Below, in pieces: positions 37,560 to 42,568 of a stretch of 64,000 bases of DNA. The translations under genes were made by a program, and so were the position numbers. The notes below the pieces were generated by a model. That model saw only the letters and a program-made list of their open reading frames with translations. It did not search any database and was not told the origin of the DNA. The first letter of the stretch is position 1; the number at the start of each line of letters is the position of its first letter. The DNA comes from Ostreococcus lucimarinus (taxonomy: Eukaryota). The stretch is taken from assembly GCA_000092065.1 (NCBI GenBank), contig CP000583.1. One strand, 5' to 3'.

Positions 37560-39548
37560 ATGCTTCGAGCGAGCGCGGCGCGACGAGACGTGCCGACGCC
37601 GGTCCTGGGGAGGTTATCGCTCGCGCGCGTGGCGCTGGTGGCGATGCGCGTGGAGCCGGAGGTGACGGAGGCGAGCGCGCGGGAGACGCTGCGGCGGGTG
37701 GTGGAATCGACGGTGCGCGCGGAGCTGCGAACGCTGCGAACGGCGTTCGGAGACGCGGCGACGGACGAGGGCGAGGGATGGCGCGATGTGCACGTGTTGG
37801 GGATGTCGAGCGAGACGTACGTGTGCGTGACGCCGCGGAAGTACGCGGAGGCGACGAAGATGGTGTGTCGGGCGACGACGAGCGACGAGAAAATTAAAGA
37901 GGCAAAGATTCCAGTGCGCGTGACGGAGGTGACGACGTGCGAGGGGAAGGATCAGATGGATGTGTTGCGGAGTTTGGTGCCGACGTTGGTTATGCAGGCG
38001 TTCGGAGAGGTGCCGCACTGGCGTGCGTTCGGGCGCACGGAGTACGGGACGCGGTTCATGTACGAAGACTTTTTCCCGTCGGTGCCGGGAGGGATGACGC
38101 ACGCCTTCGGGGTCGAGATTGAACACGGAATCAAAGTCACCAAGGCGCCGGCGACGCTGGCGCAGGACATCGGTGAAGATTGTGAAATTGAGATTCTGTT
38201 TCCAAGCATCAACGCCGTGGCGCTGCGGCTGCAACGATTTGGATCGGTGATCGACGAAATGCGACAACACGGAGTGGCGACGGCGAAAATCAGATCATTC
38301 ATCGACGGCGCCAAAGTCGTCGAGATCCACGACACGCCGATCATGGCGCAAGCGGCGCCGGAAATCGGCGTTGAAGTCGGTATCGTCGCGATTCGTCGCG
38401 AAGTTCCGCGTCCTTGCGGCTTCAAATCGATCGCAGAATTCAGAATCGCCTTCGAGTCGTCGCTCGGAACGTTTGTGCCCAGACACGCTCACACGGATGA
38501 TTCAGAGGAGGAACTTCTCGCTGATATCTGCGTTCCTGGGTGCGATAAACCTTTCTTATGGCCCGTGTCTTTGCTTCTCAAAAGCACTGGAGGTACCGAA
38601 TTTCCGGCAAGGCAGTCGCATGTGACGAACGACCACGTGCTGCGATTTCTCGAAGCCGCGCGACGCGTGAACATCGTCGACGCCCATCTTTCCTGGCTCG
38701 TCCGACGGAGCACGTTCTTGGCTCGTGAGAGCGCGCCCAAGAGTGGACCTGTCGTCCCAGATCGTGATATCTTCGTCGGCGCCTCGCACAACCGAAGCGG
38801 ATGGCCCGCGTTTTCTGCCCGAGCTAACGGGATGCCAGATTCGCTCGAGATGTGGGTCGATCCTTGGCCGCCGAATCGTAACGCGTTGCCGGATAGCATC
38901 TTCTCGCCACACGATATGGTCCCACCGAACTTTACGTCTACACCACCATCCATTCCACCAACGTTGAAAGCGCCGGGCGAAAGCAGTGATCTATTCATCG
39001 GCGAAGATTTCGACGATATCATTGATTGCGCGATGGACTTGTCTCCGTCTCGAATCGTCGCCAACGCGAGAAAGCGCATGCGCGTTGAATCTTCCGGCGA
39101 CGAAGCGCCTCCAGTGCTCGGGAGCCGCGTGACGCAGGATGGTATTCAAAAGTCACAGTTTTACAGCGTGCCAGGAGCTCCACCGATGAAGAAAAGGACG
39201 ACGCCGACGGGTCGAGAAAATCTCAAGAATCGAATCGTCGCCGCGTACGGAGTCGACAATACTGAAGTTTCCAAGCGTTTTCTCGATGTCTGTCTGCTGA
39301 TTGAGGCCGACAAACTTGATCAAATTACCGTCTCTCGGCACCATGCATTGGATGCTGCGGTGACTGACGCCCGAAACTTGATCAAATCTGTTTTGAAAAA
39401 GTATGAAGACGACGAAAACGGCAAGAATTTTGTAGAGCGATGTGGCCTTGTGCTGACGCAGATCCCGAAGGGGCGGAAGAAAGTGGAACTCATTGATTTC
39501 TTGCGAAGCGCTTTCGATCTAAAGATAAAGACGAAAACAAAGTTATAA
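37560..39548 (+). CDS. Hypothetical protein, 662 aa, no family recognised
   Basis: ATG at 37560, uninterrupted ORF. The composition is ordinary and balanced after the first 60 codons, and the gene ends in AT-rich DNA. I recognise no motif. Confidence 0.6.
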   Translation: MLRASAARRDVPTPVLGRLSLARVALVAMRVEPEVTEASARETLRRVVESTVRAELRTLRTAFGDAATDEGEGWRDVHVLGMSSETYVCVTPRKYAEATKMVCRATTSDEKIKEAKIPVRVTEVTTCEGKDQMDVLRSLVPTLVMQAFGEVPHWRAFGRTEYGTRFMYEDFFPSVPGGMTHAFGVEIEHGIKVTKAPATLAQDIGEDCEIEILFPSINAVALRLQRFGSVIDEMRQHGVATAKIRSFIDGAKVVEIHDTPIMAQAAPEIGVEVGIVAIRREVPRPCGFKSIAEFRIAFESSLGTFVPRHAHTDDSEEELLADICVPGCDKPFLWPVSLLLKSTGGTEFPARQSHVTNDHVLRFLEAARRVNIVDAHLSWLVRRSTFLARESAPKSGPVVPDRDIFVGASHNRSGWPAFSARANGMPDSLEMWVDPWPPNRNALPDSIFSPHDMVPPNFTSTPPSIPPTLKAPGESSDLFIGEDFDDIIDCAMDLSPSRIVANARKRMRVESSGDEAPPVLGSRVTQDGIQKSQFYSVPGAPPMKKRTTPTGRENLKNRIVAAYGVDNTEVSKRFLDVCLLIEADKLDQITVSRHHALDAAVTDARNLIKSVLKKYEDDENGKNFVERCGLVLTQIPKGRKKVELIDFLRSAFDLKIKTKTKL

Positions 39549-39647: not shown

Positions 39648-41609
39648 TTAAAGATTCCTCAACAACGTTTCGAGTTTAGTCATCGTCTCCTCCGAAAGCG
39701 CGGACGATGGGTTAGTGTTAATATACTCTAACTCCTCGCGCATTGTTTCTGTCGCGCGCTTGACCGCCTTGGCGAGCATATCTTCGACTTCTTCCGCAGT
39801 CTTATTGTTCGCGAAACCTTTTTGGATGGCAAACAAACCGACGGTTTGCTCGGCGAGCGACGCGACCTCTCCTTGCTTTTGCTTGAGGAAACCACGAATG
39901 GCCTCGGAGCGGCTACGAAGCTTGCTTTTTTCTGTTCCAGCGCTACCAAACGTACCCATGTCGTCCGATTGCATCAAATCGAGGCGAAGTTGAAGAAAGT
40001 TGAGCGAGCGGAAAGGCCCCGCAGCGCCCGGCGCGCCGATGCGACTCACCGAATCTTTCGCGCTGATGATCCATCCTTTCGCCGGATCGTACGAATCGAC
40101 AAAAACTTGACCATCAGTGATGGACATGAACTCTTCGACCATCGGTCGCGACTGCACGAACGCGGACTCGGGAAATTCGTCATCCGCCGTGGATACGTGC
40201 GCCGCCTTGGCTTTTTCCTCGAGCGCCTTGCGCAGCTTCTCTTGCACGGCGGCAGGCATGGAGTCGAAACCCTTGATCGATTCGACGCTGCTCGGGAGCA
40301 CAGCGCCACCCGAACCGGCGCCTTCGACCCCAGATTTGAACGTCTTCTTGTACGCCCCCTTCGGATGGTACATGACGCCCATGAGCGTGATGGACCCACC
40401 CTTGAGTTCGTCGTTCATTCTAGCAACGCGTTGGAGCGTCATACCTAAGAATCTGCGACGTTCGGCGAGTGAAGCGGAAATCAACATGCCCTCGTACTCT
40501 TCCATTTGCTCTTCCGTACCCTCGGCGACGTTCAACTGCGGTGCCATGCGCGCCATATCCTTGGTGAAGTTGACCAAGCCGGTGAAATCGTCGAGCACCA
40601 AGAGGACGTCTTCGCCCAAAGCACGCGCGCCCTCCGCGATGGCGAACGCCGTGCACGTGGCCGCGTAGCGCTCGGCCTCGCTCGGTTCATCGTCCACGGT
40701 CACGATCGTGGTGTGCGACATCGCCCCGTCTCCCTCTAATCGCTTCGCGACTTCGTCGACGCGAGACGCCTGGGCGCCCAGCGCCGCGTACACGCACCGC
40801 ACGCCCGTACTCCTTTGCGCCACGATCGATGTCAATCCGAGCTCGGAAAGTCCCGTTCCCGGTTCACCGCTCACCAGCATGCACTGCCCGCGCCCGACCG
40901 GGGCCAATAAATCCACAGCCTTGATCCCCGTCACGAGCGGCGTCGTGATCGGCTTTCTTTCCTCCACGCTCGGCGGTTCGCGCATCATCTTCGACGAATC
41001 CTCCGTTCCGGTCACCATCGCCGACCCATCCCTCGCCTCCCCGAACGCGTCCACGATCTTCCCTCGCGTCGCCCTCGCGCTCGGTCCCCACACGAACTCC
41101 GTCTTGCTCGCCTCCGCCGTCTTCCCCACCGCCCTCGCGCCGTCGCCCGTCCGTCGCCGCTCCCCTCCCTCGCCGCCGTCGAACATCAGCGCGAACGTCT
41201 TCGGTTCCCGATGGCTCAGCAGCACCGCCCGTCCGCCATCCGCGAATCGCAGCACCGCTCCCGGCGGCGCCGCGCTTCGCATGCCCTCCAGCGCGACGAC
41301 GCCGCCCCGCTCCGCCCGCGCGCACGTCCCGCTGAAATTCTTCATCCGATCCTCGTCCTCCACGCTCTCCACCGTCGGCGCCGCGCTCGATCGCGCGTCC
41401 TCCGGCACGGGTTTGCCCGCGATTCGCGCCCGCGCCACCGCCTCGGTCCCGCGCGCGCGCCGCGAGACGCCGTCGCCGCGATCGCCCGGTCGGCGGCGCG
41501 TCGCCGCGATCGTCGCCGTCGCGTCGCGTCGCGCGGGCGCGGCGCGGCGCGCGACGGCGCGACACGCGCGCGCGAGCGTCATCGCGCGATGCGGCGCGAC
41601 GGCGAGCAT
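39648..41609 (-). CDS. F1-ATPase alpha-subunit-like protein with degenerate Walker A (probable pseudo-ATPase), mitochondrial-type presequence
   Basis: Collinear with F1 alpha along its length. VTGIKAVDLLAPVGRGQCMLVSGEPGTGLSELGLTSIVAQ aligns with TGxKAVDxxxPIGRGQRELIIGDRQTGKT. VLLVLDDFTGLV aligns with ALIIYDDLSKQA. SITDGQVFVDS aligns with ITDGQIFL. SVSRIGAPGA aligns with SVSRVGGAAQ. FLKQKQGEVASLAEQTVGLFAIQKGF aligns with LLKQxQYxPxxVxxQVxxxxAxxxGY. ATG 41609 (MLAVAPHRAMTLARA...) lies inside track ORF 39648..41669. Confidence 0.8.
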   Translation of the reverse strand: MLAVAPHRAMTLARACRAVARRAAPARRDATATIAATRRRPGDRGDGVSRRARGTEAVARARIAGKPVPEDARSSAAPTVESVEDEDRMKNFSGTCARAERGGVVALEGMRSAAPPGAVLRFADGGRAVLLSHREPKTFALMFDGGEGGERRRTGDGARAVGKTAEASKTEFVWGPSARATRGKIVDAFGEARDGSAMVTGTEDSSKMMREPPSVEERKPITTPLVTGIKAVDLLAPVGRGQCMLVSGEPGTGLSELGLTSIVAQRSTGVRCVYAALGAQASRVDEVAKRLEGDGAMSHTTIVTVDDEPSEAERYAATCTAFAIAEGARALGEDVLLVLDDFTGLVNFTKDMARMAPQLNVAEGTEEQMEEYEGMLISASLAERRRFLGMTLQRVARMNDELKGGSITLMGVMYHPKGAYKKTFKSGVEGAGSGGAVLPSSVESIKGFDSMPAAVQEKLRKALEEKAKAAHVSTADDEFPESAFVQSRPMVEEFMSITDGQVFVDSYDPAKGWIISAKDSVSRIGAPGAAGPFRSLNFLQLRLDLMQSDDMGTFGSAGTEKSKLRSRSEAIRGFLKQKQGEVASLAEQTVGLFAIQKGFANNKTAEEVEDMLAKAVKRATETMREELEYINTNPSSALSEETMTKLETLLRNL

Positions 41610-41722
41610 GCCGACGCGCGCGCGTCGTCGCGGTGTGCGGCGGCGCCGTCGCGCGCGCGTCGGCCGCACTCGCGCGCGCGCCGAAGCGCCGCGCCGCGAC
41701 GACGCGACGCCGCGACGACGCG

Positions 41723-42568
41723 ATGGCGAAGAAGAAGGCGTCTCGAACGTCGCCCGCGGTCGAGCGCGCGCCGGCGCGCGCGAGCGACGGCGCGACGGCG
41801 ACGACGGGCGCGAACTGGGCGGCGCTGAAAAAGCGCATCAACGCCGGCGCGTCGAGCGCGGCCAAGGCGGCGGCCGCGGCGCGACGCGCGCTGGAGGACG
41901 TCGACGATGCGACGCGAACGCGCGACGGCGGGCGCGACGCGAGCGCGACGCCGAGGGCGACGGGACGGAACACGGCGGTGACGGCGGTGCTGGCGCTGGA
42001 CTGCGAGATGGTCGGCGTCGGCGCGGACGGGAAGCGGTCGATCCTCGCGCGAGCGTCCATCGTGAACGAGGATGGGAACGTGATCATGGACGCGCACGTG
42101 CTGCCGACGGAGCGGGTGACGGATTACAGGACGGCGGTGTCGGGGGTGCGAGCGAAGGATTTGACGGCGGCGAACGGCGCGGTGGCGTTTAAAAAGGTGC
42201 AGGCGCAGATGAGCGAACTGCTGAGGGGACGGATATTGGTGGGGCACTCCTTGAAGAATGATATGCGGGTGCTGATGCTGGATCATCCGAAGCGAGACAC
42301 GCGGGACACGAGTTTGTATCATCCGCTGACGAGGCCGTTGCGGCCGGAGGAGCGGTGCGTTCCGGGCGCGCCTCGCGGTCGCGGATGTCGCGCCCTGCGC
42401 GATCTCGCGCGGCAGCATTTAGGGTTAGAGATTCAAAAGGGCGAGCACTCCTCCGTGGACGACGCGCGGGCGACGTTGGCGCTGTATAAAAAGTTTGCCA
42501 AGCGGTGGGAGAGCGCGCTGCGCCGCGCCGACGGTAGAGACAAATTCAAAAAGCGTCGCGTCGACTAG
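41723..42568 (+). CDS. REX4: RNA exonuclease 4 (REX4 / ISG20-family DEDDh 3'-5' exonuclease)
   Basis: ATG 41723 (MAKKKASR...). ExoI is VLALDCEMVGVG. ExoII is ILVGHSLKNDMRVL. ExoIII is HSSVDDARATLALYKKF. Confidence 0.88.
   Translation: MAKKKASRTSPAVERAPARASDGATATTGANWAALKKRINAGASSAAKAAAAARRALEDVDDATRTRDGGRDASATPRATGRNTAVTAVLALDCEMVGVGADGKRSILARASIVNEDGNVIMDAHVLPTERVTDYRTAVSGVRAKDLTAANGAVAFKKVQAQMSELLRGRILVGHSLKNDMRVLMLDHPKRDTRDTSLYHPLTRPLRPEERCVPGAPRGRGCRALRDLARQHLGLEIQKGEHSSVDDARATLALYKKFAKRWESALRRADGRDKFKKRRVD

Follow-up and report, generated by a model that had tools for sequence, protein, structure and literature searches.

xATPA is a nucleus-encoded, divergent homologue of the alpha subunit of F1-ATPase, with members in the Chlorophyta and in many algae with secondary plastids but none in land plants, red algae or cyanobacteria; it was described in a preprint dated 9 July 2026 by Penot-Raquin et al. 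(bioRxiv 10.64898/2026.07.08.737214). Its members carry an N-terminal targeting sequence, a P-loop (GxxxxGKT) that is inconsistently conserved, an arginine finger that is conserved in all, and, as the defining hallmark, a 'bump' domain of ~60 aa at a fixed site of the central domain (bioRxiv 10.64898/2026.07.08.737214). The subject here is a protein of this kind encoded in a 64,000-nucleotide stretch of Ostreococcus lucimarinus DNA (the window; assembly GCA_000092065.1, contig CP000583.1), where the minus strand from 41669 to 39648 forms a single unbroken open reading frame (ORF) whose first ATG, at 41609 in the ORF list, gives a product of 653 aa:

39648-41609, minus strand: xATPA coding sequence, 653 codons plus the stop codon at 39648-39650, intronless

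Functional knowledge from the diatom Phaeodactylum tricornutum includes plastid localisation of an enhanced green fluorescent protein fusion of xATPA (Phatr3_J31465/B7FRE6), binding to ATPB with a dissociation constant (Kd) of 12 nM, versus 2.3 nM for ATPA, and pull-down of ATPB and ATPC; the diatom protein has no part in ATP-synthase function and does not replace yeast ATP1 (bioRxiv 10.64898/2026.07.08.737214). AlphaFold3 predicts a 2alpha:2beta:1xATPA assembly in which a third beta is blocked by the bump, and diatom knock-outs photosynthesise normally, with growth failing only under the combination of cold, low salinity and continuous light (bioRxiv 10.64898/2026.07.08.737214). The family is recently recognised and environmentally abundant, appears to interact with plastid ATP synthase, and is carried by organisms that include the picoalgae and diatoms dominating marine primary production.

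The window protein shares with xATPA/ATP1B the alpha fold, the N-terminal extension, the bump site, the non-conserved P-loop and the arginine finger, and has in common with Chlamydomonas and Chlorella members a green-type signature, EYEGM...RRRF; it differs in its low identity to the diatom and Chlamydomonas proteins, no more than ~26-28%, and in belonging to a Mamiellophyceae branch that lacks the P-loop Lys, whereas most other green-type members keep GxxGxGK[ST]. Canonical F1 alpha (atpA, atp1; bovine 1BMF chain A) resembles it in the three domains, the GRGQ...G.xG.G P-loop backbone, the Walker B DD, SITDGQ, SVSR[IV]G with equivalents of S344 and R373, and the C-terminal helical bundle, but has none of its 88-aa N-terminal extension, 75-aa bump, longer post-Walker-B segment and nuclear gene. 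The alpha-like proteins of the Mycoplasma F1-like X0 and gliding-motor systems (NCBIfam MMOB1660 and MSC_0619) are likewise divergent alpha paralogues outside the classical ATP synthase, with weak similarity to the window protein over the nucleotide-binding domain (112 and 87 bits against cut-offs of 600 and 520); these are bacterial proteins without a bump, encoded in operons alongside a dedicated beta-like partner, and no phylogenetic link to them was seen.

Identity of the Ostreococcus protein and its relatives

Residues 89-487 match the entry 'xATPA_CHL_MAM_Ostreococcus_lucimarinus' of Supplemental Table 1 at 399 of 399 positions (bioRxiv 10.64898/2026.07.08.737214), and because all 399 quoted residues are identical the protein is already catalogued: both the family and this exact member are known from the July 2026 preprint, and the finding is real, not new. 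The locus is very probably the O. lucimarinus orthologue of xATPA, known as ATP1B in Chlamydomonas; judged by its diatom homologue, the product would be an organelle-targeted alpha mimic involved in regulation or assembly. As a system the locus is nothing new, the family having been rediscovered independently from raw sequence; its modest contribution is a residue-level map of lesions in which the protein's own pocket is altered and the arginine-finger face kept, the fixed loss of the Walker A Lys in sampled Mamiellophyceae-type sequences, purifying selection on the gene, and a published O. lucimarinus model that probably lacks the presequence.

A sequence-only reading of the window had taken the protein to be collinear with F1 alpha from the beta-barrel to the C-terminal helices, and Pfam, matches in the Protein Data Bank (PDB), an AlphaFold2 model and Foldseek concur. 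Pfam assigns ATP-synt_ab (E 3.9e-27, aa 228-437) and ATP-synt_ab_C (E 9.3e-07, aa 541-651), the barrel domain PF02874 being undetected by sequence in this ORF; the top sequence matches in the PDB are without exception F1 alpha chains (for example 2r9v at 6e-36), split into two stretches by a gap at about aa 414-493. The AlphaFold2 model, built from 24 family sequences, has a predicted local distance difference test (pLDDT) score of 79.7 and a predicted template-modelling (pTM) score of 0.77 and comprises an N-terminal beta-barrel, followed by a RecA-like domain and a bundle of C-terminal helices; ATP-synthase alpha chains make up all of its top Foldseek matches in the PDB (E ~1e-35 to 1e-36, TM-target ~0.75-0.83). 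NCBIfam likewise ranks F1 alpha first, at 169 bits (NF009884, cut-off 554) and 157 bits (TIGR00962, cut-off 484), with beta (atpD) at 50 bits, so that the ORF is closer to alpha than to beta in both sequence and predicted structure while scoring below the equivalog cut-offs for canonical alpha. The domains are laid out as follows:

41085-41345, minus strand: N-terminal beta-barrel ('crown') domain, aa 89-175; AlphaFold2 strands within residues 92-172, aligning with the canonical alpha barrel
40368-41084, minus strand: nucleotide-binding (RecA-like) domain up to the bump, aa 176-414; ATP-synt_ab, pLDDT mostly >90, dN/dS (omega) 0.10-0.15
39651-40019, minus strand: C-terminal helical domain, aa 531-653; ATP-synt_ab_C, AlphaFold2 helices within residues 538-652

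Within the family, the ORF is collinear in alignments with orthologues of 631-646 aa and aligns through both signature and bump with Chlamydomonas CHLRE_10g419050 (Cre10.g419050), the protein named xATPA/ATP1B (bioRxiv 10.64898/2026.07.08.737214). The window protein scores 753 bits with a hidden Markov model (HMM) of the family and 206 bits with one of canonical alpha. Among 5.8 billion proteins searched, its relatives fall into three tiers: orthologues at 69-100% identity; proteins at ~41-56%, among them one from Micromonas pusilla; and, at ~30%, those of the trebouxiophytes Picochlorum, Apatococcus, Nannochloris and Chlorella sorokiniana. When 1.84 billion representatives were searched with a profile, about 50 full-length, single-stretch family matches ranked above the canonical alphas, and named members come from Pedinophyceae, Bryopsis, Pyramimonas, Cymbomonas, Volvox, Pleodorina, the diatom Stephanopyxis and Chlamydomonas reinhardtii (CHLRE_10g419050). 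This presence across Chlorophyta and many secondary-plastid algae makes a reading as a prasinophyte-specific relic too narrow.

A neighbour-joining (NJ) tree (72 sequences, 471 columns) splits xATPA from the canonical alphas, the O. tauri chloroplast and mitochondrial subunits among them, at bootstrap values of 88-100%, and the Mamiellophyceae form a clade at 100%; the phylogeny proposed as a check sets the window protein with xATPA and apart from mitochondrial, plastid and bacterial alpha. Hand-made 'green' and 'SAR' groups are not each monophyletic in this tree, most likely through misassigned metagenomic sequences, and no claim is made about green/SAR relationships. Three sequences from the representative search (P0207, P0238 and P0272) form a third alpha-like group, which in the NJ tree lies between xATPA and the canonical alphas and has an intact Walker A (GE[EKR]G.GK[TS]), no bump, an equivalent of R362 in two of the three and a shortened, diverged post-Walker-B segment; judged by these motifs, they could be a bump-less relative or intermediate of xATPA.

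Supplemental Table 1 also lists the O. tauri plastid ATPA (AGR88221) and mitochondrial ATP1 (AGR42696) (bioRxiv 10.64898/2026.07.08.737214). Both carry GDRQTGKT and RPPGREA[YF] and share 27-28% identity with the window protein. Because these canonical alphas of the congener are listed with intact motifs, the window protein is a third, extra alpha-like protein and not the working subunit, in keeping with the sequence-only view of an extra nucleus-encoded paralogue with a defective nucleotide site and a likely regulatory or assembly role, the organelle-encoded alphas existing in O. tauri; the scenario in which it would be the sole alpha fails on the same plastid and mitochondrial subunits.

The bump, the nucleotide pocket and the face towards beta

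The family hallmark is present in the window protein as an insertion that splits the QAGD|VSAY loop of canonical alpha, a loop drawn beside the ATP pocket in the preprint (bioRxiv 10.64898/2026.07.08.737214):

40140-40367, minus strand: bump domain, aa 415-490, a 75-aa insertion

The bump sits between GGSITLMGVMYH and VEEFMSITDGQ and is partly helical in the AlphaFold2 model (helices 439-447 and 453-474). Its site is the same in Chlamydomonas ATP1B, Chlorella and diatom members, and it is absent from the O. tauri chloroplast and mitochondrial alphas and from bacterial alpha. Canonical alphas run through contiguous segments, including ETQAGDVSAYIPTN, without insertions; here the post-Walker-B segment is extended and the 75-aa insertion interrupts ETQAGDVSAYIPTN. 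Against the closest orthologue, the bump shows 0 nonsynonymous and 8 synonymous changes. The sequence-only reading made no mention of the bump.

Residues were mapped on an alignment of the window protein with the O. tauri plastid and mitochondrial alphas and bovine alpha, the bovine numbering having been validated gap-free against PDB bovine chains. Canonical alpha holds the non-catalytic Mg-nucleotide with the Walker A motif GDRQTGKT, including Lys175 and Thr176; the motifs and residues of the window protein are these:

40845-40868, minus strand: degenerate Walker A GEPGTGLS, aa 248-255, versus canonical GDRQTGKT
Bovine K175, now L254: Walker A Lys, lost
Bovine T176, now S255: Walker A hydroxyl, kept
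Bovine Q172, now G251: P-loop, changed
Bovine Q208, now A279: own pocket, changed
40587-40607, minus strand: Walker B strand VLLVLDD, aa 335-341; D340/D341 correspond to bovine D269/D270, both kept
40449-40544, minus strand: post-Walker-B segment APQLNVAEGTEEQMEEYEGMLISASLAERRRF, aa 356-387, diverged and extended
40107-40124, minus strand: SITDGQ, aa 496-501; S496 corresponds to bovine S344, kept
40053-40079, minus strand: KGWIISAKD, aa 511-519; G512/W513 replace bovine R362/P363 at alpha's own adenine-pocket position
40035-40052, minus strand: SVSRIG, aa 520-525; R523 corresponds to the bovine R373 arginine finger, kept

The replacement of GDRQTGKT by GEPGTGLS lies exactly where the sequence-only reading had located it. 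That reading described a motif with neither Lys nor Thr; the loss of the Lys stands, but since Ser is permitted by the motif at the Thr position, the real lesion is Lys to Leu. The stretch after Walker B, previously called unrelated, is indeed there but is a diverged homologue, ~9 residues longer than its canonical counterpart, that keeps E-x-Y-x-G and Q-R, with E370/Y372/G374 and R394 equivalent to bovine E292/Y294/G296 and R308; EYEGM...A(E/Q)RRRF...QR.A+M is the green-type xATPA signature common to trebouxiophyte and chlorophycean members.

Bovine alpha S344 and R373 contribute to the catalytic site of beta. R373 is the Arg of SVSR, and R362, the Arg of G-I-R-P-A, lies in alpha's own pocket, at an R362/P363 position that is homologous to beta Tyr345. 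SITDGQ and SVSR(V/I)G had been noted as retained, which holds, and in the family alignments S496, D499, G500 and Q501 are invariant columns; S496 and R523 are invariant in all members aligned, R523 in two family alignments. Read through these correspondences, alpha's own non-catalytic pocket is dismantled, most of the mapped changes falling in or beside it, and the face that would be offered to beta's catalytic site is preserved in Ser496 and Arg523. The label 'rewritten catalytic-interface segment' is not apt, because the changes fall around the protein's own pocket and the beta-facing residues are kept.

Selection and the fate of the P-loop

Nei-Gojobori estimates put overall omega at 0.22 (dS 0.16) for the comparison with a 95%-identical orthologue and at 0.16-0.17 for orthologues of ~70-76% identity, the mature domains giving ~0.10-0.15. 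Purifying selection acts on the gene, which answers the proposed dN/dS check. An identical protein is indexed in 141 blocks of a public assembly collection, and in a motif census of non-redundant orthologues the Walker A Lys is found in 0 of 24 Mamiellophyceae-type sequences, GxxxxGK[ST] being restored in none; given the indexed blocks and the uniformly Lys-less orthologues, the degenerate P-loop is neither chance nor a sequencing error. All 24 retain the Walker B DD and have 'GW' at the R362/P363 position. Walker A is intact in 49 of 55 other green-type members and in 30 of 30 canonical sequences, so that the loss of the Lys is fixed across the sampled Mamiellophyceae-type orthologues and is not a general green-type trait.

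The degeneracy of the Walker motifs looks complementary between clades, the Mamiellophyceae lacking the Walker A Lys and keeping the Walker B DD, and many trebouxiophytes keeping GxxGSGKT with N-D, N-S or N-N in place of the first Walker B Asp. Every Mamiellophyceae member has Leu, Val or Ile where Walker A would have its Lys, and the R362/P363 position is occupied by Trp, with the arginine finger kept; Chlorophyceae have an aromatic residue near the same adenine-pocket position. It is possible, if somewhat doubtful, that green-type xATPA falls into two mechanistic classes, with core chlorophyte proteins that may bind nucleotide and an Ostreococcus protein that is an obligately nucleotide-free alpha mimic. 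Were this so, docking on beta, as the conserved function of xATPA, would need no nucleotide site of its own, and the two classes would form a ready comparison pair for the purpose of the alpha-type non-catalytic site.

Probable presequence, proposed role and alternatives

The ORF opens with an extension upstream of the alpha-like barrel:

41346-41609, minus strand: N-terminal extension, aa 1-88, probable organelle-targeting presequence; Arg/Ala-rich composition, low pLDDT

This extension contains 18 Arg and 22 Ala, of which 12 Arg and 14 Ala, with 0 Glu, fall in aa 1-50, and is predicted to be disordered (pLDDT <50 at residues 1-53 and 75-87). Its frame and similar length are kept in three relatives under a relaxed omega of 0.56-0.69, Met10 (41582) is a conserved alternative start, and the Tara metatranscriptome unigene MATOU-v2.115379178, identical to the protein over aa 67-465, reaches into it. 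The O. lucimarinus model of Supplemental Table 1 begins at Met89 (MKNFSGT...), and the ORF runs 88 codons further upstream. On this comparison the published model probably lacks the targeting peptide, and, starting as it does at Met89, it would therefore bias localisation predictions.

By analogy with the diatom orthologue, the protein would be imported into an organelle, probably the plastid, as an alpha mimic, where it would bind beta and gamma through its retained catalytic-type interface, itself unable to bind nucleotide. The bump would prevent closure of the alpha3beta3 ring, and because ring closure would be barred, xATPA is proposed to reside in incomplete F1-like subcomplexes, in which the Ostreococcus protein probably binds beta and gamma. 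Outside the rotary enzyme it could then modulate assembly, stoichiometry or the latent activity of beta. Ostreococcus tauri is genetically tractable, and its orthologue could serve as a minimal green model for this diatom-derived hypothesis.

Several points weigh against this account. All of its functional steps are transferred from a diatom orthologue that is only ~26% identical, that belongs to a SAR-type branch and whose bump differs in sequence, and the source of the mechanism is a preprint that is not peer-reviewed (bioRxiv 10.64898/2026.07.08.737214). The placement of the bump relative to the two interfaces is read from sequence homology and the preprint's figures. Since a labyrinthulomycete xATPA failed to complement the diatom knock-out, functional conservation across the family is uncertain, and Chlamydomonas ATP1B is annotated as mitochondrial (bioRxiv 10.64898/2026.07.08.737214). 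Nucleotide independence, moreover, may be specific to Mamiellophyceae, because most other green-type members have an intact Walker A.

In green algae, xATPA might pair with mitochondrial beta inside the mitochondrion instead of working in the plastid, an improbable arrangement that nevertheless has the Chlamydomonas and Volvox orthologues annotated as mitochondrial alpha isoforms, DeepLoc2 predictions for xATPA split between mitochondria and chloroplasts, and the occurrence of xATPA in non-photosynthetic labyrinthulomycetes in its favour (bioRxiv 10.64898/2026.07.08.737214). The Arg/Ala-rich, Ser/Thr-poor presequence is compatible with a mitochondrial signal, its composition not discriminating between plastid and mitochondrion. 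Experimental localisation, however, is plastidial in both P. tricornutum and the Euglena plastid proteome, the diel expression of Chlamydomonas ATP1B follows that of plastid ATP-synthase genes, a 70-kDa F1-associated protein is seen in Chlamydomonas thylakoid fractions, and the distribution of xATPA tracks plastid-bearing lineages (bioRxiv 10.64898/2026.07.08.737214).

A role outside any ATP-synthase context, as a scaffold or ATP-independent chaperone in, for example, organelle protein homeostasis, would suit the apparently dead nucleotide site and the diatom knock-outs, which shift protein-metabolism transcripts rather than ATP-synthase pathways and have no photosynthetic defect (bioRxiv 10.64898/2026.07.08.737214). 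It is nonetheless very unlikely: the family-wide invariance of S496 and R523 is hard to explain without a beta-type partner, and in the diatom, xATPA has a nanomolar Kd for ATPB and recovers both ATPB and ATPC in pull-downs (bioRxiv 10.64898/2026.07.08.737214).

The protein could also be regarded as a functionless remnant in decay, left after atpA or atp1 moved from organelle to nucleus, as the lost Walker A Lys and the several degenerate pocket residues might suggest. This is refuted by selection and conservation, and its probability is negligible: the 653-codon frame is intact under an omega of 0.16-0.22 overall and ~0.10-0.15 in the mature domains, the bump carries synonymous changes only against the closest orthologue, orthologues extend across Chlorophyta and secondary algae, ocean transcription is shown by the MATOU unigene, and the diatom knock-out has a phenotype (bioRxiv 10.64898/2026.07.08.737214). 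Equally negligible is a working organellar alpha, whether sole or a true isoform, with an odd P-loop due to sequencing or assembly error, to which public pipelines lend the label 'F-type H+-transporting ATPase subunit alpha' but which is refuted by the canonical plastid and mitochondrial alphas of the congener and the Lys-less P-loops of 24 of 24 relatives, and opposed by scores of 169 and 157 bits where the equivalog cut-offs are 554 and 484, the 141 indexed blocks with an identical protein, a bump and extended post-Walker-B segment absent from every canonical alpha compared, and the failure of diatom xATPA to substitute for yeast ATP1 (bioRxiv 10.64898/2026.07.08.737214).

Gene neighbourhood and overlapping frames

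The gene order around xATPA, namely orotidine monophosphate (OMP) decarboxylase, proteasomal AAA, RNase_T exonuclease, xATPA, a 662-aa protein and RabGAP, is conserved in related genomes. Directly downstream and convergent lies the 662-aa ORF (37560-39548, plus strand), which has no Pfam match and whose position and length (660-668 aa) are kept in related Ostreococcus-type contigs. Four overlapping ORFs in other frames (205-494 aa), with Arg/Gly/Ala-rich translations, span the 5' part of xATPA and the sequence upstream; those at 40708-42192 (plus), 40864-42087 (minus), 41211-41828 (plus) and 41579-42418 (minus) are most readily taken as compositional artefacts of a GC content of 69%. One alternative protein text follows, from ARDRGGG... 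on, the out-of-frame ORF at 40864-42087 (minus) and then enters the true frame at VTGIKAVDLL, a pattern that suggests a transcript model with a frame shift and not a true isoform. Upstream, a gap of ~113 bp (41610-41722) separates the xATPA start from the divergent gene of the RNase_T-family (REX4-like) exonuclease (41723-42568, plus strand), a spacing that implies a compact bidirectional promoter, and this layout is conserved in related genomes.

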